DNA of 64,000 nt from Podarcis vaucheri (Eukaryota), in NCBI GenBank assembly GCA_965113315.1, contig OZ220365.1. One strand, 5' to 3'. Of the stretch, positions 1,735-33,523 are shown in pieces. The notes below the pieces were generated by a model that saw only the letters and a program-made list of their open reading frames with translations, ran no database searches and was not told the origin of the DNA. The translations under genes and the position numbers were made by a program. Every line of letters begins with the position of its first letter. Position 1 is the stretch's first letter.

Positions 1735-2482
1735 CGCTCCCCAACTCCAAGCCTTTTCCAAACTGTTTTACGTTTGTTTTAGGAAGGGTGTGAGCGCTGC
1801 TGCAAATCATCTCGGCTTCCAAGTCTCTTGCTGAAAGGGTGCAGGTTGCTTACGCCCGAGCGCCCCTTATCATTTCAATAAATGCCAATTGCAGCCTTGG
1901 CGCTGTTATAGCAATGGAGCTACAGACGTCATTGCCTCCTCTTGGACGTGAGATGCGGCCAACCCCTCAGCCCCCTTCTCGCGCTCAAGAAAAACTCTGC
2001 AACTTCCAGCCAGGCGCGCAGTCTTTTGCCCAGAGATCCTGGGCACAGCAACCCGCTAACAGACGGACCGGAGAGGGATCAGCCAGCCCAGTTCTTTCTT
2101 TCTCTCTCTCTTCGAGGAGAAAAAGAAGTAATCATGAACTCAGTCGATTTGGGGGTGGCTGCCTTGCAAAAAGGCTTTGCAGAAGCTTCCGGGCAACGGA
2201 TGGAGAGGGAACCAAGCAGCCAACATGTCTTAAAGCAAGACTTGTCGAGCGCGGGGTTCCCTCCTTGGGGCGTCCAGGTTCCCTTGGGGCACCTGCTGCT
2301 CTTACTGTCTGCACCAGCAAAAGCTGGGAATTGGGGTGGGGGGGGGACCTTAACTTCCAGCCACTTCTGCGGCGAGCCCTCCCCGATTTCGTCTCTCTTT
2401 TGCCTTCCGGACTGAACCCCTTTCTTTCAAACTTGCCCCAGAGGGCGAAACAACCGAGATCAAGCTCGCTGCGCAGTTTTGG

Positions 2483-2491
2483 ATGGTAAGT
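2483..2491 (+). other. Strong splice donor ATG|GTAAGT (candidate first-exon end)
   Basis: Consensus 5' splice site with GT at 2486 within CpG island. Confidence 0.45.
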
Positions 2492-3737
2492 GTCCGTGAA
2501 GAGCGGGGGCGGGGGGGGGGAGGCGGCGTGGAGAACGCAGCAGCCTCGGAGGGCAGAGCAGGTGGTAGAAAAGCCGCAAAGGTTGGCGGGGTGGGGGGGG
2601 GGAGAAAGAGATAGAGGGAAAGAAAAAGTGTGGCAGCTTCTGCCAAAGCATCGAGGCAGCCTGGAGTGGAAAGGGTTACAGAGGCATTTGGGGCAGGTGC
2701 GGGTGGTGGTGGGGAGAGAGAGCGGGACAGGACGCAGATCCTGTCCGACTGCTGGGATTCCACCTTCCGTAACCGGGGAGCGCGCGTGCTTAGGAGTCGA
2801 GTTGCGCGTGAACTCCTGGTGGCCAGCTGCGAAGCGCCGGCTGCCCGCAACGATTCCTTAAGAGTCCGGCGCAACTTCCTTCGAGGGGACTGGCTCTCTC
2901 CTAGGCAGCGTGCTTCGGCGCTAGCAAGCCGAAGGGATCCGGGATCGGAGCTGGGAGGAGCGAGCAGGCTCCTCCCACGCGCCCCGCGCCCGATCCGGCT
3001 TTCCTGCCCACTGCCCCCCTTCCTCCGCCTGGACGGATCATCTGGTCCCTCTCCGCCCCCTGGCGTGAATTTCATCCGCCAGGACTCGCGCTCCGCGCAC
3101 CCCACGCCGCGTCCCAAAGCAAAGCGCCCCCCCTGCAGGCGACTTGGGCCCCTTGCAGCCCCGTGAGTCCCAGGCTAATAACTCCTCCTCCTCGCTCTCT
3201 GCAAGTCCTCCTCACCTTCATTGAGGTTCATTTAGAAACATTTCGCGCTGCACCCCGTCTCTAATATATATGTATATTTTAATATATTTAGGACTTCCCT
3301 AGTGCTATTACGCAGCGTTCCTTAATTTTTAACACCCCCCCCTTCCATGATCAGTTGGCCACTTTCTCAATTTCGCACCTCCACTTACTAGTTTCCCCGA
3401 AAAAGGCTATAATAACAATAATAATAATTAATAATGGTGGTGGTCTGTAGGAGGGTGGGGAGCAGATCCCATAACCAGGCAACCCTCCTTCGACGTGGGG
3501 CTGCGCGGATGGGCTTGTGATTTGTAGGATTGCTCCACTTAGACCCTGCCTCCTCCTTGCTCTCCAGCCACTCTAAAGTCTCTCCCCCTTTTTAAGCAGC
3601 GATTCTTTTCCATCCGCGGCGGTGTGTGTTACGCGCGCGTGTGTCTCGCTTTCTCCCTCCCGATCTCCCTGGAGAGAGAGAGAGAGAGCGAGAGAGAGCG
3701 AGGGGAAAAGGAAACTCTACTCCCAAGCCCCGTCCAG

Positions 3738-12497: not shown

Positions 12498-13252
12498 TCA
12501 GAACATTTTTTTTTATGCTCAGAACTATTTTTTTCTGGACTGCTGTAGAAAAACTATTTTGAGAAAACTAGGATAACGAAGAACTCATAGAATCATAGAG
12601 TTGTAGAGCTGGAAGGGACCGCGAGGGTCTTCAGTCCAACCCCTTAAAACGCAGGGATCTTTTTGGCCAACGTGGGGCTCGGAATTAAGACCCTCAGAAA
12701 TACCCAGAAAAGAAAAGCATGATGACTGCTGGCTGGGATTAGGGACAAGAACATTATTGATGTATTGCTGTACCTTGGCTTTCAGTTTATTTATTTTGTC
12801 TGCAAAAACGTCTACACCACCAATATTAAGAAAAAATGTCATGGTGACAAACAGCATAAAATCAACAATTAAATTGCATAATTATTACAAGGGACTTTTG
12901 TTTTCTTTTTCTGCTTCGTTATACTGCCTAGCTACCTTATTGGTTACGTCGTGAGGTTGTTGAATGAGGGAGAAAGACCTAGCTGAACTTTAAACGAAAC
13001 AAGGCACAATATAGAAGCTTAAGACCAGTAATATTTTCTAACATTTCAAATGATTGATACCTCACAAGTCCCGATGTAAATAGCTGGAGAACTAAACAGG
13101 TTGGAGAGGTTGGAGAGGTTCAGGAGGCAACTTCCATAAACTTCCATAAATCGGCACCTCTGCTACTGTTTACTCCAGCTTAGAACAAAAGATAAGCCGC
13201 CGGTAAGCAAGCACCCCCCTACTATACATCCATATATACCCATATACCCACT

Positions 13253-15175
13253 ATGGTCCTCACCAGGAAAAATTACAAGGACCAAGGAATTCTGCCTAAT
13301 TCACCACAGAGGCCGATGGAACGACGAAGGAGACAAAGTAAAATTACCAGCTACTTTCCCCAAAAAGACTCGAGCAAGAGAACTCTGAATGAGAGTATCC
13401 TAGATGTAGCTATGCCTTTGCCACTTACAGTGCTGGATTGGTCAACACAGTTAAAGGACTTGCAAACAAACAACAAGTGGACAAACCATCCAACAAATCT
13501 GGCTCAAGAACTTGCCATAGCAGAGAATGCTACAAAGGCTAACACAGCCAACACATCCGATGCCAATCCTCATTTGTCACCGCTGGAACTTGGAGGTAAT
13601 CTTTCATCCCACTGGGTGAAAGCCAATGACTGTGGAACAGAAATGTGGGGTGATCATCTTCAGGAGCAGATATACCAGATCTCTAAGGATCTCCTTAACG
13701 TTAAAAAATTTCTAGCGATAACAAACGGGCTGCTCCTGACCCTAGTGGATAACTTCAAACAACATGTGAGCGCTTCAGACCAGAATACAAATCCCCTAGC
13801 CAGCCCGGATCCACCACTCCCCAGTAAACCCCCGAGGAAAAAAGCTGAGCCTAAGAGGAAGAAAAGCAAAAACATGAAAAACCTAAGGCGGCTTAAGACA
13901 ACTCACCGTACCTGTAAAAAATATTGGCAGAAGCTCTTTAACCTTCTTCCATCCCTTTCTACAAGTGGAAAAAACAAATCCAAGTCGAGTGCCATCAAAG
14001 AGACACGTAAAGTAGATACTCCCATAAAAGAATCTAAATCAAGTTCTGAAGAATCAACACCGAGCTGGGACAAAGGAACTGATCCATCTGCAGTCATATC
14101 GCCCCAGAGTCCTCTCATGGCCAGCACAGAATCAGTAGACAGAGGTGAGCAGGCGACCCAAACTATCGAGGGGAACCACTCCTCTCAAGTTCGACAGATG
14201 TTGTGTCCCAAAAGAGAATGGAGTTTAGTCCTAATCCCACAAAAGCTTGTCTTTGCTAATTACCCTAAACCGCCTAGATTTTACGCCAGGTTGGACCGTA
14301 CAGACCACTTTTTGTCTATTATAAGTGGCATTTTACCGGGGGTAGTAAAAGCAACTGACATAGCCGCTATAGAGTATCTACATCAAGATGATTGCTCGGT
14401 ACGAGCACTGATTACTTTTTTAGATCATAATCTGGCCAGTTTCATTTTTAGAGCTAAAAACCTATTCAAAAAAGAAAGAATAGTTCTGTTAAGAATATTT
14501 GAAAATAGAGCACCTGCAACCCCTCTGATAGGGCCCAAGAGCATAGGAGTGGAAGTTCACAAAAGGGAAAAAACCAACCACCAAAACCATCGAAATAGAA
14601 AGCATAAGTTCCAGCAGGATCATCCCCACCAAACAGCACCAAATGAAAAAAAGGAAGCCTCACACCCAACTGGCGTCGAGCCTCCCACGTGGGACAGTGA
14701 GGACTCCGTTTGGGAGGAAGAACTCTCGCTGATAAAGCGATTCTGGTCACTGCATTCTCCAGCTCAAACTGAGATCCTGAAAAGATTTGATTTACTTCGA
14801 AGCAGACTAGAAAAAAAGGATGATCAAGGTGAGACAATGAAGGACCCTTATGTGCAGCCTATATCTCCCAAATGTCTGGTGGATAAGAAGACAGTGGGAG
14901 GCACCTTTAAATGTGTGGACGTGGAATTACAATCAGAGCCCCCTGTGATGTACAATAAAGTAAGACCAAAGCAAGGTGTGAAACCTCAAAGCTCCTGGCA
15001 CAGCTATCTTAAATTGTCTCCGAATGAATTAGCTTCCCCCCCAACTCCAAAATCTAGCCCCAAATCACCAAGAAAAGAGGATCACTACACTCTCTCCAAG
15101 CAGCCAGCCTCGAAAAGAACCAACGGGTGTGTTTTTTTAGACACCAAAGAATTGCTGGACATGGTGGTGACATAG
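13253..15175 (+). CDS. Retrotransposon ORF1 (640 aa; putative coiled coil, basic tracts, possible RRM-like core)
   Basis: Uninterrupted ATG-initiated ORF upstream of APE-RT ORF within the TSD-bounded element; domain calls are by eye only. Confidence 0.85.
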   Translation: MVLTRKNYKDQGILPNSPQRPMERRRRQSKITSYFPQKDSSKRTLNESILDVAMPLPLTVLDWSTQLKDLQTNNKWTNHPTNLAQELAIAENATKANTANTSDANPHLSPLELGGNLSSHWVKANDCGTEMWGDHLQEQIYQISKDLLNVKKFLAITNGLLLTLVDNFKQHVSASDQNTNPLASPDPPLPSKPPRKKAEPKRKKSKNMKNLRRLKTTHRTCKKYWQKLFNLLPSLSTSGKNKSKSSAIKETRKVDTPIKESKSSSEESTPSWDKGTDPSAVISPQSPLMASTESVDRGEQATQTIEGNHSSQVRQMLCPKREWSLVLIPQKLVFANYPKPPRFYARLDRTDHFLSIISGILPGVVKATDIAAIEYLHQDDCSVRALITFLDHNLASFIFRAKNLFKKERIVLLRIFENRAPATPLIGPKSIGVEVHKREKTNHQNHRNRKHKFQQDHPHQTAPNEKKEASHPTGVEPPTWDSEDSVWEEELSLIKRFWSLHSPAQTEILKRFDLLRSRLEKKDDQGETMKDPYVQPISPKCLVDKKTVGGTFKCVDVELQSEPPVMYNKVRPKQGVKPQSSWHSYLKLSPNELASPPTPKSSPKSPRKEDHYTLSKQPASKRTNGCVFLDTKELLDMVVT

Positions 15176-18100
15176 ATCCAGCCCCCCGAAGGGCCCGGGG
15201 CCTAAAAGTGCTGTCCTGGAATATCGCGGGCTGGCACGCCAAGAAAAATAATCAACAATTTTTGTGTTACCTTAAGCAATTTGACATCATCTTCTTTCAG
15301 GAGACATGGCAGAATGACCCTATATTTCTTAATGGGTATAACTGCCACTACCTGCCTGCCTCTCCATCTCAAAGGGGCGGCAGATCTAGTGGTGGCCTAG
15401 CTTGCTTCATTTCCACGGAGCTAGCGCACTCCCTAACAGCCCTACCCAGCTGCAACTCTTTAGCAACAGCCGCCCTACTTAGCTTCAAGAGAACTATTCT
15501 CTTGCTGGTCAATGTCTATATCCCCCCAGGCCAAAAAAAAACCGTTGTTAAGGCTACATGGGCTGAGCTAGAGGCGTTTTTAGAGCCACTCGAATCTATT
15601 TACCCGTCTGCCCTGACCATTGTGTGTGGAGATTTCAACGCTCGTATAGGAACAGATGACAACAGTCTACACACTCATTTCAACCAATTTTTGGACACTG
15701 AAGAACAGACGGATATCGGCGCGACACGTCTGTCCAAAGATAGTAGAAGTAATTTCCCAGGTCTCTGCTTAGTGCAGGCTGCTAGACGGAGGGAACTGCT
15801 GATATTAAACGGCAATATAGAGGGGGACCGCCCCGGGGAATATACCCATTTCTCCAAGGCTGGGGGAAGTATTATAGACTATATCTTAATCTCAAGATTT
15901 GCTCACAGCTTTATAAGGAAGTTTCAAGTGGGCCATAATACCCTGAGTGATCACCTACCTCTAATTTTAGAGCTTGCAGGCGGGCCTTTTGACTATTCTA
16001 TTGCCGAGCCACAATATATACCTTCTGTAAATTTGGATATACCAGCCCCCAAAAGACTCAAATGGTCCCCAATATTGAATGAAAACCTAACCCTCCTTCT
16101 TCAGTCAGTGGAGTTAAAGCTTATTCGCTCCGCTATTGTATCAGGAAATTCAGCAGCTGCGATTATGGAACGCTTTAAATTACTCTTGGAAAGATTGAAA
16201 CCCCATTTAACAACAGTGATACATAGCTCCGCTACAAAGAGGGCAAAGGACGGAGCTAGCTGGTTTGACCTGGAGTGCAGGCAAACAAGGAGACAAATGA
16301 GAACAGCCTACCGGAGATACAGGAAATCAGGGACTGCTCTCCTACTTAATGCTTATATTTATCTGAGACGGTCGTATAAACAATTATTAAGGAGAAAGAA
16401 ACTGGAAGCTGAAAGAGCCGCATGGCACAGGTTGGTTAAGGCATCGCACGAGAAAGATACTACTTGCTTTTGGCGAACCATATCTGGTCTACTGGACCAG
16501 GAGCGCACTAATTCCATCTGTACAGTGGAACCAATGGAGTGGTTGCGCCATTTTCAATCTTTGTTCTATGACCAGGAAGCCCAACATTACAAACTATGCA
16601 TTCAACTGGAGGACCTACCTCATTGGCCAGCAGTAACTCCGAAGGAAGTTGAGAACTTAATCGTACAATTAAAGAACAACAAGGCCCCAGGGAATGATTA
16701 CATCCCTGCCGAACTTCTGAAGTCCAACATTGGCTGGTGGGCCCCCCTGCTGGCGTCTTTATTTTCTTGGATCGACTCAACGGGTTTACTCCCAGATGGT
16801 TGGACTGAGGCAATAATTATCCCAATCTACAAAAAAGGTCCCATGACAGATCCGGCGAGTTATAGACCAATCAGCCTTCTGCCTATACTCAGCAAACTAT
16901 ATGCCAAACATCTTTATACCAAGCTAACTAGCTGGCTGGAAACTGAAGCTATTCTAGCGGAAGAGCAAGCGGGTTTCAGGCAAGGCAGATCCACCATAGA
17001 CCATTGCTTCACCCTAGCCTATTTAATTGACAAATATGCCAAAAAATCCCGTGGGGTGTTATATGCAGCCTTTATTGATCTAAAGGCTGCTTTCGATTCA
17101 ATTCCACGTGTAAGACTCTGGGACAAATTGAGCACCTCTAGCATAGACAAAAGACTATTATTTCTGATCAGCTGTTTATACAAAGACACGGTGCTGCATG
17201 TAAGAACTTCGTTAAATGGCCATCTTATAGGACCAGTTCCTGTCAGTAAGGGGGTCAAGCAAGGCTGTATCCTGGCTCCAGTTCTATTCAACATCTACAT
17301 CAATGATATGGTTAACTGTTTGTCATCTCCGGACTTCCACGCCCCCAAACTGGCTGACAAAGCAATATCAGTGCTTTTGTACGCTGACGATGCGATACTC
17401 CTATCCCGAACAAGAATAGGTTTAAATAGGCTCATAGATGAATTCTCAGCATATTGTAGAAGAGAGCAACTTGCAATAAACTATCAGAAAACCAAAATCA
17501 TGGTTTTTGCAAGGAAACACAGACAGTACAGCTGGAGGATGGATAACCAGACAATTGAACAAGTCAAAGCCTTCAAATATCTGGGTATCGTTTTCCAGTC
17601 GACCGGGTCCTGGGATGTCCACCAAAAATGTGCCAAAGAAAAAGCTGCTCAAAGCATCAAGATGCTGTCCCGCTTCTTCTATACGAAGGGGGGCAGATAC
17701 ATCCCAGCAGCCCTTGAAGTTTATCAAGCAAAACCTCTGGCGCAGTTATTGTACGGGGCGCAAATCTGGACGGGGACCCATTGCTCCAGTCTTGAAACTG
17801 TCCAGTCCAAATTTCTAAGGCAAATACTCGGTGTCCCCCCCTGTGTTCCAAACGCAGCATTGCGACTCGAGGCCTGCCTTCCATCTGTGGAAACTCGGAC
17901 CTGGCAGAGAACATTTAATTATTGGCTTCGTCTTAATCTGAATCCTCCTGGTCTACTGCCGTTAGTAATGCAAGATCCTCACGAAAGCAAGTGGTTTAAA
18001 ACTGTGCATAAAAAACTCCTTACATGCGGTCTGCACTCACAGTCCCTACTATCAATGGGCCTCATCAAAGCAAAGAGTTTAATAGGCCAGCGCCTGAAAG

Positions 18101-18537
18101 ACATCGAACGACAAAACAACCTGACTATCTTAAAGAAACTGTGCCCATGGTATACCTACTTTCCCCCTTCTCATTTTGACTCTCCAGCCTCATATTTGTC
18201 TAAACTAACCATCCCAAAATACAGACGTGCCTTTACATTGGCTAGATGGGATGTTCTTCCCTCTGCTGTACTCGAAGGTCGTTACCAAAAGACCCCATTT
18301 GAAAAACGACTCTGCCCATGTGGAGATGGTAACACGGAAACAGTGTCCCACGTCCTTTTTTCTTGCCCTCTTTACAAAGACCTAAGGAATGAGATTATTA
18401 CTCCACTCATTCTCTCCAACCCCGGCCGTTCAACAGACATTACACTGCATTTTCTATTATCTGATACGAACAGTCAGATAACAGAGAAGGTCGCGAGGTA
18501 CATCGAGAGAGCTGTGAAATTGAGGGCCACCATCTGA
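15058..18537 (+). CDS. Retrotransposon ORF2: AP endonuclease + reverse transcriptase + C-terminal CCHC knuckle
   Basis: APE motifs SWNI, FQET, GDFNA, IDY, SDH; RT motifs YRPISLL, QAGFR, FIDLKAAFDS, GVKQG, YADD, KYLG; CPC-x8-H-x4-C; frame open from 15058 (preceding stop 15055-15057), first ATG only at 16165. Confidence 0.95.
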   Translation, partial: PQITKKRGSLHSLQAASLEKNQRVCFFRHQRIAGHGGDIDPAPRRARGLKVLSWNIAGWHAKKNNQQFLCYLKQFDIIFFQETWQNDPIFLNGYNCHYLPASPSQRGGRSSGGLACFISTELAHSLTALPSCNSLATAALLSFKRTILLLVNVYIPPGQKKTVVKATWAELEAFLEPLESIYPSALTIVCGDFNARIGTDDNSLHTHFNQFLDTEEQTDIGATRLSKDSRSNFPGLCLVQAARRRELLILNGNIEGDRPGEYTHFSKAGGSIIDYILISRFAHSFIRKFQVGHNTLSDHLPLILELAGGPFDYSIAEPQYIPSVNLDIPAPKRLKWSPILNENLTLLLQSVELKLIRSAIVSGNSAAAIMERFKLLLERLKPHLTTVIHSSATKRAKDGASWFDLECRQTRRQMRTAYRRYRKSGTALLLNAYIYLRRSYKQLLRRKKLEAERAAWHRLVKASHEKDTTCFWRTISGLLDQERTNSICTVEPMEWLRHFQSLFYDQEAQHYKLCIQLEDLPHWPAVTPKEVENLIVQLKNNKAPGNDYIPAELLKSNIGWWAPLLASLFSWIDSTGLLPDGWTEAIIIPIYKKGPMTDPASYRPISLLPILSKLYAKHLYTKLTSWLETEAILAEEQAGFRQGRSTIDHCFTLAYLIDKYAKKSRGVLYAAFIDLKAAFDSIPRVRLWDKLSTSSIDKRLLFLISCLYKDTVLHVRTSLNGHLIGPVPVSKGVKQGCILAPVLFNIYINDMVNCLSSPDFHAPKLADKAISVLLYADDAILLSRTRIGLNRLIDEFSAYCRREQLAINYQKTKIMVFARKHRQYSWRMDNQTIEQVKAFKYLGIVFQSTGSWDVHQKCAKEKAAQSIKMLSRFFYTKGGRYIPAALEVYQAKPLAQLLYGAQIWTGTHCSSLETVQSKFLRQILGVPPCVPNAALRLEACLPSVETRTWQRTFNYWLRLNLNPPGLLPLVMQDPHESKWFKTVHKKLLTCGLHSQSLLSMGLIKAKSLIGQRLKDIERQNNLTILKKLCPWYTYFPPSHFDSPASYLSKLTIPKYRRAFTLARWDVLPSAVLEGRYQKTPFEKRLCPCGDGNTETVSHVLFSCPLYKDLRNEIITPLILSNPGRSTDITLHFLLSDTNSQITEKVARYIERAVKLRATI

Positions 18538-20093
18538 GTGACAGACCTGTTCACCCGACGGACCTCCTTTTGTCTGTTCTTTTCTTCCTTTTATCCCTAT
18601 TCTCATTTTTAACTTTTGTACAGCTGTGGCCTGTTGGCTTTGCTAATAAAGTTTTGATTTGATTTGATTTGATTTGAACAATTAAATTGCATCTGTAAAA
18701 CAAATGACTACAGGACAAATCTGTAGATCACATTAAGACATCAACATGCCTGGATCAGCTCTTAGGGCAAGGCTAGATGAGCAGCTGTGGACCAGGTTTC
18801 CTGAAAGGCTGACTTCTCCTCCAATTCCTGGTAAGGGTATTAAAATCAACCAATGAAATCTGGTTAGTCTTGTCAGTTGCCACAGCCTAATGGTTACGGA
18901 GGTGGGATTTTTCACTGGTTGGCCCTGGTGTTAAATGCATTCCCTACTGAAATACAAGAGGTCTCATCTGTATTGTCATTCTGTTGGCTTTGAAGATGCA
19001 TCGGTTTTCATAGACATTCCTTTGATCTCTCTACCTCGGTCCTTCAAAATTGCTGTGTTTTTTTCCATAGGACTGTTTTATTCTGTATTTTAATTATGGG
19101 CATTTTTGTTGAATGCTTGCCTTTTATACTTGTAAAACCACCTAGAAGCCTGTTTTGGCATTTCTAGAAATTGTTTATTATTAGTAATACTGTAATGATA
19201 ACAGGTGAGTTTTAGGTGGCAATACTGTAGGTGCCTGACAGATGTTCATTAGATACACGTTCTAAAAGGCAGCTGCTGCCACACGAATGGCCCTGGTCTC
19301 AGAGGATATAAGATAAACCTCAGGAGCGTACAGCACTGCTTAGGAGTGTCTCTCTTGAAGTTCAAAGTGACAGGGATACATAAGGTAAGGCATTCCAGCA
19401 GTAGAGGAAGTTTTCTGAAAACATTGTAATTGTACTAATGTATTAATTGACAAGAGGAGCTGAATGTGGAACTGTTCTTTCTGAAACTTTGTAATTAGAT
19501 ATTAGGGTCACTTTTCCTATCATAATTGTCAGTCACCCTATATTGAATTGTGGTTCCATCATCTGACATGCTAAGGGTCCAACCATGTGTAACACTAAAT
19601 CTGTTTTTGCATTTAACATGCATGTTCATGTTTAAAAATAAATAAATATGCAAATGGCGGCTGCTGGACGTGCTGGCAATTTTTGGGATCCCAGGTACAT
19701 AGTACCCACAACTAGTCAGCTTGGGTCAGCATCTGAGACAATATATTCAGAAGTTCCTCTAACCCTCACTGAAAGTAAAAAATATATATACAATAATAAT
19801 ACATCAAACCAAAGGACTAGTAGTTTGCTGCTCTTTTGTGACATCCAAAATCAGCTGCCTGAGGCAGCTACTTCACTTTGCATAAAGGTAGGACTGGCCA
19901 TGTATAAAGCCAACTCTGAAGGGGTGTGAGGGGGGAACATCTAAGTATGTGAAATGTTTAGACTTCAGGATATAAACAGAGGGTACATATTAGATTTTCA
20001 CTTGAAAAGTAAGCATTCTCCTCCCCCTTGGTATATCTACTTTCTTTTTATTCTGCTCCTTGTATGGAAGTTGTATGGCACCCCACATGAGTA

Positions 20094-24033: not shown

Positions 24034-24981
24034 TAGAATCATAGAATCATAGAGTTGGAATAGACCACAAGGGCCATCGAGTCCAACCCCCTGCCAAGCA
24101 GGAAACACCATCAGAGCACTCCTGACATATGGTTGTCAAGCCTCTGCTTAAAGACCTCCAAAGTAGGAGACTCCACCACACTCCTTGGCAGCAAATTCCA
24201 CTGTCAAACAGCTCTTACTGTCAGGAAGTTCTTCCTAATGTTTAGGTGGAATCTTCTTTCTTGTAGTTTGGATCCATTGCTCCGTGTCCGCTTCTCTGGA
24301 GCAGCAGAAAACAACCTTTCTCCCTCCTCTATATGACATCCTTTTATATATTTGAACATGGCTATCATATCACCCCTTAACCTCCTCTTCTCCAGGCTAA
24401 ACATGCCCAGCTCCCTTAGCCGTTCCTCATAAGGCATCGTTTCCAGGCCTTTGACCATTTTGGCTGCCCTCCTCTGGACACGTTACAGTTTGTCAGTGTC
24501 CTTCTTGAACTGTGGTGCCCAGAACTGGACACAGTACTCCAGGTGAGGTCTGACCAGAGCAGAATACAGTGGCACTATTACTTCCCTTGATCTAGATGCT
24601 ATACTCCTATTGATGCAGCCCAGAATTGCATTGGCTTTTTTAGCTGCCGCGTCACACTGTTGGCTCATGTCAAGTTTGTGGTCAACCAAGACTCCTAGAT
24701 CCTTTTCACATGTACTGCTCTCAAGCCAGGTGTCACCCATCTTGTATTTGTGCCTCTCATTTTTTTTGCCCAAGTGCAATACTTTACATTTCTCCCTGTT
24801 AAAGTTCATCTTGTTTGTTTTGGCCCAGTTCTCTAATCTGTCAAGGTCGTTTTGAAGTGTGATCCTGCCCTCTGGGGTGTTAGCCACCCCTCCCAGTTTG
24901 GTGTCATCTGCAAATTTGATCAGGATGCCCTTGAGTCCATCATCCAAGTCGTTGATAAAGATGTTGAATAAGACCGGGCCC
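24034..24981 (-). mobile_element. Young 5'-truncated CR1 LINE (RT C-terminal part, one nonsense codon at 24483-24485)
   Basis: [13 protein letters not shown]...KFADDTKL...LEYCVQFW; 3' (ATTCTATG)n terminus. Confidence 0.95.
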
Positions 24982-25179
24982 ATGCATGTGGGAACCCCAT
25001 GCAAAAGGTAGAAACCTGACCCTGGATGGCTTTGCCTCCACTGTTGGAGATCCCCTGAAAAAATGCAGTCCATCACTGGTCCTTGGATTAGAACTCCTTC
25101 TACTATACTTCCCGTGAGAATCATGTGGATTTCTCTGTTTTTTAACATAAAGCTGAAATAGCAAGTTTGACTGTGCTGA

Positions 25180-25388
25180 CAGGGCCGGCCCACTCACCCA
25201 TGAGGCAAGATGAGGCGACCGCCTCAGGCAGCAAGGTCCACCAGAGCAGCAGATCCTGATATTTATCTTTCTTCCATTCCTTGTTCCTGATGTAGGTCTT
25301 CCCTGACCCCTTCTTCGCTGATGGGGGTGGGGTGTGTGTGCCATTTTGAAGTCTGCCTCAGGTGCCAAAATGTACTGGGCCGGTCCTG
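25180..25388. mobile_element. hAT-like MITE
   Basis: TIR cagggccggccca/tgggccggtcctg; 8-bp TSD tgtgctga/tgtgctgc. Confidence 0.8.
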
Positions 25389-27550
25389 TGTGCTGCTATT
25401 CTTAGACATACAACATGCAAGTTAATTTGTGGCTAACACACTCTACCAGCCCTTATTTCAAGTGAATAAGTCTTCAAAGTCTTGGTTTTAAATACATGAG
25501 AAGTTTTGGCTAAACTGTGGAGAATGGAGATGTGCTTCTAACAGTCTGTAGCTGCAGCAAACTGAAAAACAAAACATATATTATTGTGTTAAGCAATTTT
25601 AAAATGAACAGTGCTGAAAGAGGGAGCATATTTTAAAACAAAATATCAAAACATAAAGATATAAGCTGAAAACCAGGTGGTTGTTCTTCTAAAGAAAAAA
25701 TCTTAAGCAACTTTTGAATATGTGTACTATTGCCCTCTGCTGGACAACTTGGGACTGTGAGCAATATTGTGCTTGATAAGGTGCTTTTTCTGTTCAGAAA
25801 ACACTTTTATGATTTATGAAATAATAAGGGAGTAAAGTCTAAATGGCAAGGACAGATGGAGCAACGGGTTTAGGATCACTCAATAATTGTCCCCAATTGA
25901 CAAGGTTTGCGTTTACAATAAAATAAAACCTTATCCAGGATAATGCAGCTCCCATGTAATTTGTCAATTAAAACAAACAAATAATATAGCAGGGTGCTGG
26001 CAGGAAGGCATGGTGGGTTCTGCATTCTTCATTTGGTCCATATAGATCTTTAGAAGAGGATCCGCAGGAAACATTTCTTATGGTTCATGTGGAAAGATAC
26101 AAAGGGTCATCAGGACAAAATGAAACTTAGTGGTGATGCCCTTTAAACACTCTGAAGCTTTTTCTGTTCATCCAGGCATAAAGGCAGCTTGAGGTCCTGA
26201 AGATTTGGCGTTCGGATGAATTGAAACCTACTGTGAAATTGCAGAGAAGCAAGACAGATGCTGTGGCCATTTCCAACCGCACCTAGATTGCTTTCCCTAT
26301 TGCATCAGGCTATGCATAGCCAGTCTAGAAGCTATGGCATGTACTACTAATGCCACACTACTAGTGTGCACTAGAACCTAGAAGAGATGGCCAGTGTTTG
26401 GGGGCCTGTGAACAACTTTGCAAATGGAATAACTTGCCACAGGTACCACACACACTGCAACCTGCAGCCTTTTCTAGTCAGGAATGCTACTCTGAAGCCT
26501 CATTTCAGCAGGGCAAGGGGCCCTGTGGGTGCCAGAGAAGACATCTGTGGGAACATGGGTGCTCCTGAGTGCTGCACTGATGAGCCCTGGCCTAGAGGCT
26601 ACCTGATTCAGATTGCACAGCATGGATCAGATCATTTTGGCCATCTCTCTCCCAGGTTCCATGAAGCATAGCTTCAACACTTAGGTTGCAGAGGGGCAAA
26701 GGAGGTATTGATACTAACAGGATCGATGAACAGCTCTTCACTGTATGTTGCATTATGCTTGTATGGCAGTCTGCATTGTGCATCATCACTGGCATATGCC
26801 AAGGTCCAGAGGCCTCTCTCATTATCAGACTCTGGGATAACAAATCAGATGGCCAGCAGGTGTCTGAAAAACGAATGGGAACTGACAAGGCTCACCTTTC
26901 CCTTTTGTCTACTGAGGTTATACTGTCAAGAGTCCCTTTGCAGCTACTCTGGACTCTGGATGATCAGAGGTGTATGGAAGGTGTGTTTGGTCAAACTGTT
27001 CATCCTATCCAAGCACATTATCTGTATGTAATGGACCTACTATGAACAGAGAACAATATTTCACAGCCTAAAAGGGCCATAAACATGACACTAACAATGC
27101 AGCTATACATCACTGATTGGCAGTACCAGGAGGTTTGCTGTCAGTGGTGGTAGAGGAGAAATTCATGGTTGCAAAGGCAAGGGTGTGAATATGAAGAGCT
27201 GCTTATTGAAAGCCAGCAGTAATCTCCTAATATGTTTCGATAAGTGGATTAGAATTTGGAAATTTTAGATAAAGCTGTCAGGTTGCAGACTTGCGCTGTA
27301 ATAAATCCTGAGCTCCATTCCGTCGTCTTAAGAGGGAGAAAAGCTAGCTAGCCTTTCTGTTTCTTAATAATACCATGTGTAGAAGAATTTCTGAGTTCTC
27401 CATATGAATATGAAGCGGATGTGAAACTCAGTTTGTGGGTGCTACTTTTAAAGGCTGTGATACACAGCAAACATTGCAAACACTATGTTTTAATAATGTA
27501 GGGCAACTGTTATACAAGGCTGACATCTTAGACATGGCTACAGTCCCACT

Positions 27551-28539
27551 AACAAGGTCCAATAACAAGGCCAGTGGAAGTGATGGTATTCCAGCTGAAC
27601 TGTTTAAAATTTTAAAAGATGATGCTGTTAAGGTGCTACACTCAATATGCCAGCAAGTTTGGAAAACTCAGCAGTGGCCAGAGGATTGGAGAAGATCAGT
27701 CTACATCCCAGTCCCAAAGAAGGGGAGTGCCAAAGAATGCTCCAACTACCGCACAATTGCACTCATTTCACACGCTAGCAAGGTTATGCTTAAAATTCTA
27801 CAAGGAAGGCTCAAGCAGTATGTGGACCGAGAACTCCCAGAAGTGCAAGCTGGATTTAGAAGAGGCAGAGGAACCAGAGACCAAATTGCAAACATGCGCT
27901 GGATTATGGAGAAAGCCAGAGAGTTCCAGAAAGACATCTACTTCTGCTTCATTGACTATGCAAAAGCCTTTGACTGTGTTGACCACAGCAAACTATGGCA
28001 AGTTCTTAAAGAAATGGGAGTGCCTGATCACCTCATCTGTCTCCTGCGAAATCTCTATGTGGGACAAGAAGCTACAGTTAGAACTGGATATGGAACAACT
28101 GATTGGTTCCAAATTGGGAAAGGAGTACGGCAAGGCTGTATATTGTCTCCCTGCTTATTTAACTTATATGCAGAATTCATCATGCGAAAGGCTGGGCTGG
28201 ATGAATCCCAAGCCGGAATTAAGATTGCCGGAAGAAATATCAACAACCTCAGATATGCAGATGACACAACCTTGATGGCAGAAAGTGAAGAGGAATTAAA
28301 GAACCTCTTCTCATGAGAAGAGAGGACTCCCTGGAAAAGACCCTGATGTTGGGAAAGATGGAGGGCACAAGGAGAAGGGGACGACAGAGAATGAGATGGT
28401 TGGATGGTGTTCTTGAAGCTACTAGCATGAGTTTGATCAAACTGCGGGAGGCAGTGGAGGACAGAAGTGCCTGGCGTGCTCTGGTCCATGGGGTCACGAA
28501 GAGTCGGACACGACTAAACGACTAAACAACAACAACAAC
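27551..28539 (+). mobile_element. RTE-BovB LINE, 5'-truncated with internal deletion at ~28309
   Basis: RT motifs NYRTIALISH, QAGFR, FIDYAKAFD, GVRQG, YADD; (CAA)n tail; 11-bp TSD acagtcccact (27540-27550, 28540-28550). Confidence 0.95.
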
Positions 28540-30701: not shown

Positions 30702-31345
30702 TTTCGGCTTCTTGTTACTGGAACAGAGCAGAGTCTGGTGTTTGAGTTCCTATAAATACTGTTGAGGGGTGTGGTGTATAGCCTCCAACGTTCTGGGCAA
30801 AGAGGAAGTTCCTAGATTAGTGTGCCTTTTCTTCTTTTGTTCCTTAATTACTTGAGGGATATCTTGGGTGATTTCATGAGTGATATTCAGAATATCACTG
30901 GGTGGGTCATTAAGTGTAGATTAGTTGCTAAAGCTTTCGTGTCTTGACCTCTTGAGCTTGTGAAGAGTTTTTCTGAGAAGATGGCTGTGCTGCATTTAGT
31001 TGTGCTCTGGCTTGGCTTCGTGTATAGGGGCGAGCTATGGTTTTGTGCCTTGTGCCAGCCAGATCTGTGTAGGGATTGCAGGGGGGTGCAGCATCCGGAG
31101 GTGCCACTATAGTTTGGCTACTGGATGGAGTCTGTAATATGTCTGTGGAGAGGGTCTGGGTTTGGGTCTGGTGTGGTTGATTGGTGACGGCGTTCTGTGT
31201 GCCTCTGGTTCTGGTGTCGGTTTTTGTGGGGAGGGCTAATTTCCAGATGTCTGGCAGGCGGGACGTGTCGTCACGCTTGTTCATGTTGTGAGGGTGTTTC
31301 TCTATCTCGATGGCTTCCATGATTATTCTCTTGTGGTGATGTTCC

Positions 31346-33523
31346 ATGTTAAAGAGCAATTTGGAATCTGCAAAATTAATTTCATGTCCTGTTTCTTTCA
31401 TGTGTTGGAAAAGAGAGGAAGTTTTCAACTTTGCAGTCGCCCCGAGACGCATCCCCACGGAAAACATCATATGCGGAGTCGAAGCTAGCCTGACCAAAAT
31501 CGACCCAGATGAAGCCAATAAAATCAGACTTGAAGTCACCAACATCCTCTGCTCCAGCAAACCACCCAGAAGCAATTTACACAAAGAAGAACAGAAAGCA
31601 CTCACCAACCTGAGGAAAGACAACAACATAATCATTCTCCCAGCAGACAAAGGCAACGCCACTGTTGTGATGAACACATCGGACTACCAAGCAAAACTAT
31701 CAAATCTACTCCAAGATCCTACCTACCAACCTATAAAAACAGATCCCACCACCTATCTGGAAAAAACCACCAAATCCAAAATAAAAGCCTCTCCTATCAG
31801 TGAAGAAATCCAGCTAAGAATCATCCCCAGAGAAAAATCATCCAGATGCCCCAAACTCTACGGTCTCCCCAAGATACACAAAGAAGGAACACCACTCAGA
31901 CCAATAGTCAGCTCCATAGGCTCACCTCTACAAAATCTCGCTAAATTTCTCGCTAAGCAACTTCAGCCCTATGCAGAATCCATCGCTTCACACGTTACTA
32001 ACTCCTTCCAGTTCATAGAAACAATAAAGAAGCAATACCTACATCCCGATGACCTTCTTGTGAGCTTCGATGTTGTATCTCTCTTCACTCAAGTACCCAT
32101 TAATGAAGCCTTGACAGCCATCCAAAACAAATACAATCCCCCCAAATACATCCTGGACCTGACCAACCACTGCCTAACCAACACGTACTTCATCCACAAT
32201 GGACAAAGATACAAACAGATAGAAGGAGCACCTATGGGATCACCCCTCTCACCGGTCATCGCAAATTTGTACATGGAACACTTTGAAACCAATGCTTTAG
32301 ACAAGTCAGAACACAAACCCAAACTTTGGCTCAGATATGTTGACGACACCTTTGTAATTTGGCCACACGGGAAAGAAAAACTAGATAGCTTCCTCACACA
32401 TCTCAACAGCCTACACCCCAAAATACAATTCACTATGGAAATAGAAGACAACAACCAACTCCCCTTTCTTGACGTCCTAATCTACAAAAAACCTGATGGC
32501 TCCCTAGGACACACTATCTACCGGAAAAAAACACACACCAACCGCTACTTACATGCACAATCACACCACCACCCTGCACAAATAAACTCCGTAGCCAAGA
32601 CTCTCATCTCCAGAACCAAACGCCTGGCTGACAAAGACCACTTGACAACTGAGTTACAGAATCTCTCAAATGTGTTAATCGCCAATGGATACCAGAAAAA
32701 CAGGGTTACGAAGCTAATCCAAAAAGAAACACCCCCCAAAAACCAAGACACAGAAGAAAACAATGGCATGGCCCTCCTTCCTTATATCAAGGGCACTACA
32801 GACAAAATTAGCAAAATCCTCCATAAACACAATATCAAAACAGCCTTCTGCACCAACCAAAAAATAACCAATATCCTCAGAAACCCAAAAGACAAAATCC
32901 AGCTGGAAAACCAAGGGGTCTATGAAATACCCTGCAAAGTCTGCCCAGCCACGTACATTGGACAAACAAACAGACGAATAAATGCACGTATCGCAGAACA
33001 CAAGAATGCCGTCAAAAAAGAAGAAAAAACTTCCTCTCTTTTCCAACACATGAAAGAAACAGGACACGAAATTAATTTTGCAGATTCCAAATTGCTCTTT
33101 AACATGGAACATCACCACAAGAGAATAATCATGGAAGCCATCGAGATAGAGAAACACCCTCACAACATGAACAAGCGTGACGACACGTCCCGCCTGCCAG
33201 ACATCTGGAAATTAGCCCTCCCCACAAAAACCGACACCAGAACCAGAGGCACACAGAACGCCGTCACCAATCAACCACACCAGACCCAAACCCAGACCCT
33301 CTCCACAGACATATTACAGACTCCATCCAGTAGCCAAACTATAGTGGCACCTCCGGATGCTGCACCCCCCTGCAATCCCTACACAGATCTGGCTGGCACA
33401 AGGCACAAAATCACAGCTCGCCCCTATACACGAAGCCAAGCCAGAGCACAACTAAATGCAGCACAACCATCTTCTCAGAAAAACTCTTCACAAGCTCAAG
33501 AGGTCAAGACACGAAAGCTTTAG
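31346..33523 (+). CDS. Penelope-like RT + GIY-YIG endonuclease (5'-truncated; first ~26 codons come from the inverted segment)
   Basis: LYGLPKIHK, LRPIVS, SFDVVSLFT, GAPMGSPLSP, LRYVDDTF, LPFLDV; GVYEIPCKVCPATYIGQT, RIAEH; no stops. Confidence 0.92.
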   Translation: MLKSNLESAKLISCPVSFMCWKREEVFNFAVAPRRIPTENIICGVEASLTKIDPDEANKIRLEVTNILCSSKPPRSNLHKEEQKALTNLRKDNNIIILPADKGNATVVMNTSDYQAKLSNLLQDPTYQPIKTDPTTYLEKTTKSKIKASPISEEIQLRIIPREKSSRCPKLYGLPKIHKEGTPLRPIVSSIGSPLQNLAKFLAKQLQPYAESIASHVTNSFQFIETIKKQYLHPDDLLVSFDVVSLFTQVPINEALTAIQNKYNPPKYILDLTNHCLTNTYFIHNGQRYKQIEGAPMGSPLSPVIANLYMEHFETNALDKSEHKPKLWLRYVDDTFVIWPHGKEKLDSFLTHLNSLHPKIQFTMEIEDNNQLPFLDVLIYKKPDGSLGHTIYRKKTHTNRYLHAQSHHHPAQINSVAKTLISRTKRLADKDHLTTELQNLSNVLIANGYQKNRVTKLIQKETPPKNQDTEENNGMALLPYIKGTTDKISKILHKHNIKTAFCTNQKITNILRNPKDKIQLENQGVYEIPCKVCPATYIGQTNRRINARIAEHKNAVKKEEKTSSLFQHMKETGHEINFADSKLLFNMEHHHKRIIMEAIEIEKHPHNMNKRDDTSRLPDIWKLALPTKTDTRTRGTQNAVTNQPHQTQTQTLSTDILQTPSSSQTIVAPPDAAPPCNPYTDLAGTRHKITARPYTRSQARAQLNAAQPSSQKNSSQAQEVKTRKL

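Follow-up and report, generated by a model that had tools for sequence, protein, structure and literature searches.

How the second open reading frame (ORF2) of long interspersed nuclear elements (LINEs) is translated is a long-open question, and the tested models, from L1 and SART1, involve reinitiation. In mammalian L1 (PMC5972666) and silkworm SART1 (PMC5009743), ORF2 is described as having its own AUG, which is reached by termination-reinitiation. Here, we analyze a LINE family found in a 64,000-nucleotide (nt) stretch of Podarcis vaucheri DNA (GenBank assembly GCA_965113315.1, contig OZ220365.1; the whole stretch is called the window below), and propose that its ORF2 is reached by -1 ribosomal frameshifting. 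Like L1 and SART1, this is a bicistronic LINE with an APE-type endonuclease and a reverse transcriptase (RT). Unlike them, the window family has no AUG at or soon after the ORF1 stop, nor anywhere else before the endonuclease.

One of the closest described frameshifting systems is retroviral. A -1 slippery heptamer is defined as X_XXY_YYZ, where Y is A or U and Z is A, C, or U, and the usual signal has a second element, an RNA structure 5-9 nt downstream (PMC3542737). The gag-pol site of human immunodeficiency virus type 1 (HIV-1) is U_UUU_UUA, and Semliki Forest virus is described as frameshifting without intra-mRNA structure (PMC5009743). The window LINE has the HIV-1 heptamer in the same phase, a polymerase frame at -1 without a start of its own, and a predicted Leu/Phe junction. 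It differs from HIV-1 in being an element without long terminal repeats (LTRs) and without a protease to cleave the fusion, and we found no conserved stem-loop 5-9 nt from its heptamer.

Recoding has also been claimed for other LINEs. The Dictyostelium elements TRE5-A and TRE3-A, which are likewise APE-type and non-LTR, are said to need -1 frameshifting to express ORF2 (PMC5911963). Thus, the window LINE is not the first for which this has been claimed. The TRE elements differ in belonging to an amoeba, in being of the L1 group, and in targeting tRNA genes; the passages concerned (PMC5911963) give neither a slip sequence nor an experiment, and those of a second review (PMC5633606) do not use the word frameshift. 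For Paramecium LINEs, +1 frameshifting or reinitiation versus readthrough has been suggested for groups 1-3 from consensus sequences (PMC5405496). These resemble the present case in that related groups have differing ORF junctions. They differ in that the passages on them give no motif, whereas the LINEs described here have a canonical -1 heptamer in one branch and TGA-C in 11 sister lineages. Full-text literature searches, with subscription papers and Repbase mostly outside their range, brought up no paper on a vertebrate LINE with a slippery or readthrough ORF junction in its title or the opening of its abstract.

The features of the window LINE on which the argument rests are the following:

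12880..18676, + strand: full-length APE-type LINE, with ends taken from blastn against other copies and from the target-site duplication
13253..15175, + strand: ORF1, 640 amino acids; first ATG at 13253, TAG stop at 15173-15175, frame open over 13196-15175
13334..13357, + strand: PIP-box-like motif QSKITSYF in ORF1, so labeled by the PIP-box consensus
14416..14422, + strand: second in-phase T TTT TTA inside ORF1, used as a chance control; not conserved
15058..18537, + strand: ORF2 frame, 1159 amino acids stop to stop, -1 relative to ORF1, with endonuclease and RT
15133..15139, + strand: slippery heptamer T TTT TTA in ORF1 phase, the predicted -1 shift site, 84 nt 5' of the Trp codon of the SWN motif
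15142..15201, + strand: stems proposed from the sequence alone; present in the window family, not conserved, z near 0
15173..15175, + strand: ORF1 stop TAG, found among frameshift-type lineages in the window family only
15203..15205, + strand: ORF1-frame TAA common to all five frameshift-type lineages and the ORF1 stop of lineages B, C, and D; an NTG codon in the ORF2 frame follows at 15208
15211..15954, + strand: APE-like endonuclease domain (Pfam PF03372)
16831..17592, + strand: RT domain (Pfam PF00078)

ORF2 of the window LINE is probably expressed as an ORF1-ORF2 fusion. The two frames overlap by 118 nt, and the first in-frame ORF2 ATG, at 16165, lies 3' of the endonuclease Pfam match (residues 52-299). 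Within the overlap, a run of seven Ts (15132-15138) followed by an A at 15139 provides an X_XXY_YYZ heptamer in zero-frame phase; the downstream gene is at -1, is open from the site, and lacks its own start. The absence of an ORF2 start before the endonuclease, together with an overlap at a conserved slippery site, makes a frameshift fusion likely. We give a probability of roughly 0.7 to the reading that ORF2 is made as a fusion of ~1761 amino acids through a predicted -1 slip on U UUU UUA (15133-15139). This had been proposed in an earlier, sequence-only reading of the locus. Its frame offset, overlap, heptamer phase, and first ORF2 ATG are all right, and recomputation returned the fusion it predicted (629 + 1132 = 1761 amino acids) and the junction peptide NGCVF(L)RHQR.

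By this mechanism, ribosomes would translate ORF1 and most would terminate at 15173. A minority would slip back one base at U UUU UUA, read on through RHQR, and enter the endonuclease, with Leu/Phe heterogeneity predicted at the junction. The slip rate is presumably low. Because no conserved 3' structure was found, it would depend on the U6A run by itself, possibly aided by an unstructured element.

Taken alone, the heptamer is weak evidence, as ORF1 contains three in-phase X XXY YYZ sites. One of these, at 14416, is itself T TTT TTA. A slip there would meet a -1-frame stop after four codons and truncate the ORF1 protein (ORF1p). This second heptamer is confined to the youngest family, being missing from all eight copies of a 91%-identical subfamily. 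What goes beyond chance on sequence comparison is the conservation of the junction site, not the heptamer alone.

Genomic copies retain the -1 arrangement. A DNA search returned 75 candidates, of which 40 were scored: 38 have T7 and two have T8. The 24 bases that follow the AG, searched as an exact pattern, occur at 46 genomic places in the window family and its 91% subfamily, and we examined them all. The junction is T7 in register in 43, T8 in two, and carries a T>G change in one. Since 43 of the 46 copies are T7, the junction is not an assembly error. The T8 copies (L024/L041 on contig C10 and L039 on C26) have a single open frame of 1780 codons. They sit in different sub-lineages whose other members are T7, and they share no private variants; a T8 master element was rejected on this ground. 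T8 therefore has two independent origins and has not spread, and the form that retrotransposes is the -1 arrangement, seen in the majority. The T8 copies themselves could reflect slippage during copying or assembly error. The sequence-only reading had named T8 in other copies or reads and an in-frame AUG as findings that would count against frameshifting; T8 occurs in only two of 46 copies, and the window family has no in-frame AUG ahead of the endonuclease start.

ORF1 and the junction are transcribed in a close relative. Raw RNA reads from that relative (run X24) cover 30 of 30 bins across 13100-16400, with a depth of ~4 at the junction, and first mates are mostly from the minus strand, which in the usual protocol means sense RNA. 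No joint, indel, or loose end is listed at the junction, at this depth and a listing threshold of three reads, which is too shallow to exclude splicing.

The junction site is shared by four further lineages. Lineages B, C, D, and E keep the T-run and AG at a distance of 84 nt from the SWN Trp codon, on its 5' side. Their divergence from the window family (A) is considerable: B is 68% identical in amino acids over ORF2, and B, C, D, and E are 52-72% identical in the endonuclease. Exact T7 is seen in 10 of 20 rows of lineage B, with eight rows carrying 2 additional nt, one T6, and one a substitution. It is also seen in one of two rows of lineage D, while each of the four rows of lineage C has one change. 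In lineage E, T5 or longer followed by A occurs in 10 of the 11 rows that cover the site (4 of 15 rows without the site were left out). The eight lineage-B copies with 2 additional nt (L271-L278, contig C41) are near-identical and probably make up a single cluster of segmental duplications; the base at the start of the T-run is G in some of them and T in others.

We find that the predicted slip site is conserved beyond protein constraint, with noise in the old lineages. Synonymous sites have reached saturation in the A-B comparison, where 74 of 205 four-fold sites are identical. Pooled over both ORFs, V/I codons ending in T are retained in 10 of 28 cases, TTT in 12 of 27, and TTA in 5 of 23. 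This gives a joint retention chance of ~0.03 for one pair, or 0.014 with ORF2 rates and 0.15 with ORF1 rates. When one copy is taken per lineage, neighboring codons change synonymously (AAC/AAT, GGG/GGA, AGT/AGC, GAC/GAT) and the site codons are fixed except for one base in the C copy; the D and E copies used in this codon table, the baseline, and the folding were chosen for an intact T7, which biases the codon table.

The frames are arranged around the same site. In B, C, D, and E, the ORF2 frame has a stop within six codons 5' of the site and is open 3' of it. Relative to the SWN Trp codon, the ORF1 stop moves from -44 (A) to -32 (most E) and -14 (B, C, and D), while the site stays put. The ORF2 entry interval common to all five lineages is -93 to -44, and the slip site falls inside it. 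The first ORF2-frame ATG lies at +948 in A, +474 in A2, and +48 in B.

Sister lineages in the same genome have readthrough-type junctions. These lineages, at 34-44% amino acid identity, were collected by protein and pattern searches, with 28 loci taken among the first 100 of 332 pattern matches. Left out of the junction counts were L092, L099, L102, and L110 (no element), L127 and L128 (junction missing), and L093 and L094 (too decayed). Among the matches listed, a single TGA separates ORF1 from an in-frame ORF2 in at least 13 lineages, and C follows this TGA in 11 of those 13. The next codon in these 11 is CTA (4), CAA (3), CAG (2), CTG (1), or CGG (1). T, G, A, and C are the sole invariant columns of 69 across the 11 lineages, against a background C frequency of 0.21, and TGA-C is in frame in 22 of 26 copies, being displaced by indels in the other 4.

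Readthrough contexts described in the literature are UGA-CUA, UGA-CGG, and CAR-YYA (PMC3542737). A UGA followed by C, as in these contexts, is what 11 of the 13 in-frame lineages have. The sister junctions resemble Type I/II readthrough in alphaviruses and tobamoviruses, with UGA-CUA in four lineages, UGA-CGG in one, UGA-CAR in five, and UGA-CUG in one; CAR-YYA is complete in two of the five UGA-CAR lineages. They appear to differ in the 3' stem-loop: no common one was found across the TGA-C lineages, and z falls below -2 in only 2 of 11.

A third junction type occurs in the lineage of L087, L100, and L114, which has TGA-T or TGA-A, an in-frame ATG before the endonuclease, and a longer in-frame spacer of 150-190 nt. 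This is the only AUG-bearing in-frame lineage, and it is also without TGA-C. The upstream flank of locus L088 contains a 520-amino-acid frame in the ORF1 region that resembles the end of another LINE ORF2. A metagenome scan returned 80 distant loci (24-42% identity), of which just one passed the endonuclease-start filter, and was uninformative.

The phylogeny suggests, without proving it, that readthrough was replaced by -1 frameshifting in one branch. An ORF2 tree built from 23 rows by a quick search under LG+G4, in which the outgroup branches are long, unites the frameshift lineages with an SH-aLRT of 100 and places this clade among TGA-C lineages with support of 98 and 86. ORF1 N-termini reading MV[LF]TR group the same nine rows. 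A tree constrained to unite the TGA-C rows is rejected (p-AU 0.028), but one that unites them with the AUG lineage is not (0.185).

Several observations weigh against -1 frameshifting at the junction. The T TTT TTA motif occurs twice in this ORF1, so the heptamer by itself is not rare. Part of the site's conservation is explained by protein constraint, since the site falls within the ORF1 peptide NG.[VI]FLD, which is itself conserved. Lineages C, D, and E are old and decayed. All five lineages share an ORF1-frame TAA at -14 and, after it, an NTG codon in position -9; in lineage E, an ATG stands at -6. The slip site can also be read as a 3' splice acceptor. Among the sister lineages, the old in-frame lineage L107/L112 has TGA-A and no AUG. 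There is no conserved stimulator 5-9 nt downstream, with z between -1.2 and +0.6 for +6..+65 in nine copies. When the post-slip region is paired at long range with other parts of the element, the best duplex is no better than shuffles in A and A2; in one lineage-B copy, it is ~2 standard deviations above shuffles, at another place.

The downstream stems and pseudoknot of the sequence-only reading do not hold up. The pairings GCTGGA/TCCAGC and CACCA/TGGTG and the GC hairpin exist in the window sequence. Across lineages, GCUGGA/UCCAGC keeps six of six pairs in A and A2, five of six in D, and one or two of six in B, C, and E; the CACCA stem has five of five pairs in A only. The window family fold does not beat dinucleotide shuffles (z = -0.60 for +6..+65 and -0.17 for +6..+105). 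As there is no conserved structure at 5-9 nt, this is not a classical two-part signal. With Semliki Forest virus as precedent, the absence of structure weakens the case for a classical signal, not the case for a -1 shift. The proposed frameshift gains from the copy counts, from conservation in four more lineages, and from the readthrough-type junctions of sister elements, and loses its structural component. A hairpin over the SWNIAGW codons (window 15206-15235) outperforms synonymous recoding (5% level) in five copies out of 19, namely A, B, D, L080, and L100, being strong in B, D, and L080 and weaker in A. It lies ~65 nt from the slip site; this distance and its lack of generality led us to reject it as a stimulator.

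Other routes to ORF2 can be weighed against this evidence. Ribosomes might terminate at the ORF1 stop and restart without an AUG at the near-cognate NTG at 15208, releasing free ORF2 protein (ORF2p). Such termination-reinitiation has precedents in L1 (PMC5972666) and SART1 (PMC5009743), and the shared TAA and NTG (with A at -3 in all five lineages), as well as the ATG of lineage E, would suit it. However, a start at -9 or -6 would cut off the conserved L-K-(L/V) that opens the first endonuclease strand, to which we ascribe a structural role. Nor would it account for the T-run at -84, the ORF2 frame open from -93, or the C that always follows TGA in 11 sister lineages, none of which has NTG as its -9 codon. 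We therefore consider reinitiation unlikely. The heptamer might instead be a by-product of the ORF1 peptide V/I-F-L-D, with ORF2 translated by internal entry or from an upstream non-cognate start. The ORF1 C-terminal motif NG.[IV][FY]..D..[GS].LD.[IV] is indeed present in non-frameshift lineages too, and the copy at 14416 demonstrates that the heptamer can arise by chance. Yet the synonymous positions of the three site codons are fixed while their neighbors vary, and baseline retention is low; we regard this as the least probable of the alternatives.

The remaining alternatives act on the RNA and would leave marks in new insertions, given that L1 ORF2p reportedly copies its own mRNA (cis preference). 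If the T-run and AG served as a 3' splice acceptor, a spliced RNA could join an upstream AUG exon to ORF2. The sequence TTTTTTTAG fits the acceptor consensus, and the AG is conserved. Under cis preference, spliced copies should be common, but none of the 46 genomic copies is joined to other sequence at the AG, the RNA reads list neither a joint nor a loose end (depth ~4, threshold three reads), and splicing needs no exact seven Ts in phase. Splicing is thus very unlikely. RNA polymerase could also add a U on T7, giving an in-frame U8 mRNA and the same fusion. T8 does give the 1780-codon open frame, and it has two origins among 32 young copies, compared with no length changes at the T6 run at 14416. 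Under cis preference, however, new insertions would then be mostly T8, and only 2 of 46 are; neither T8 copy has descendants among the 32 copies compared, and no indel is listed in the shallow RNA reads. We judge transcriptional slippage highly improbable. Ribosomal -1 frameshifting therefore remains our preferred explanation for the junction.

A LINE group with interchangeable recoding signals is probably the larger result, and the site in the window probably a real, conserved case of -1 programmed frameshifting. For the wider group, we infer that recoding would yield much ORF1p and little fusion enzyme, through UGA-C readthrough in most lineages and -1 frameshifting in the window branch. We lean slightly toward a still broader proposal, drawn from sequence comparison, in which the whole vertebrate LINE group makes its RT as an uncleaved, recoded ORF1-ORF2 fusion. 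The group would have switched between UGA-C readthrough, structure-free U6A -1 frameshifting, and free AUG-initiated ORF2 within the history of one genome, and the fusion would deliver to the enzyme the putative PCNA-binding motif of ORF1, which ORF2 lacks. Of 15 groups, 12 have the PIP-box-like motif in their ORF1 region, compared with a rate of 1.1% in shuffled ORF1, and it occurs in 1 of 28 ORF2 stretches. Its position splits by branch: it is N-terminal in the window element, L073, L080, L083, and L087, and C-terminal, ~23 codons before the TGA and thus just 5' of TGA-C, in L089, L095, L103, L104, L111, and L118.

The window element belongs to a young family, with copies ~99.5% identical. 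It has an APE endonuclease and RT, no LTRs, a repeat tail, a target-site duplication, and 5'-truncated copies, as is typical of APE-type LINEs. Its termini are the following:

12864..12879, + strand: 16-bp target-site duplication, 5' copy
18652..18676, + strand: TTTGA-repeat 3' tail, after AATAAAG
18677..18692, + strand: 16-bp target-site duplication, 3' copy

Among named proteins, the closest come from Podarcis muralis (69%) and Anolis carolinensis (41%), which points to a squamate as the probable host, and the nearest solved protein to ORF2 is human L1 ORF2p (E 1.9e-25). ORF1 has no Pfam match; homologues of it are present in the sister lineages. A weak search found no naturally fused, longer ORF1-ORF2-type proteins at E 0.001. 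The element may belong to the RTE-X (RTEX) clade, which it resembles in its two ORFs, APE and RT domains, C-terminal Cys/His motif, and short-repeat tail.

Elsewhere in the window, there is a Penelope-like element at 31340-33523 (+ strand) with a 727-amino-acid frame, an RT, and a weak GIY-YIG match. Further RT fragments lie at 27414-28316 (+ strand) and 24483-25193 (- strand). Three overlapping open frames of 231-274 amino acids, on both strands and without Pfam match, occupy 1794-3174.

Automatic annotation will start ORF2 proteins of this kind at the first ATG and thereby lose the endonuclease. If ORF2 is fused to ORF1, the PIP-box-like motif of ORF1 would be carried onto the enzyme, which is a possible use of the fusion, and a Gag-Pol-like fusion is predicted in an element without a protease. 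Three junction types occur in related elements of a single genome and form a natural series, and two of the types match textbook viral recoding motifs. With such a series, recoding in vertebrate LINEs can be tested directly, and the elements present what may be an evolutionary exchange of readthrough and frameshifting.

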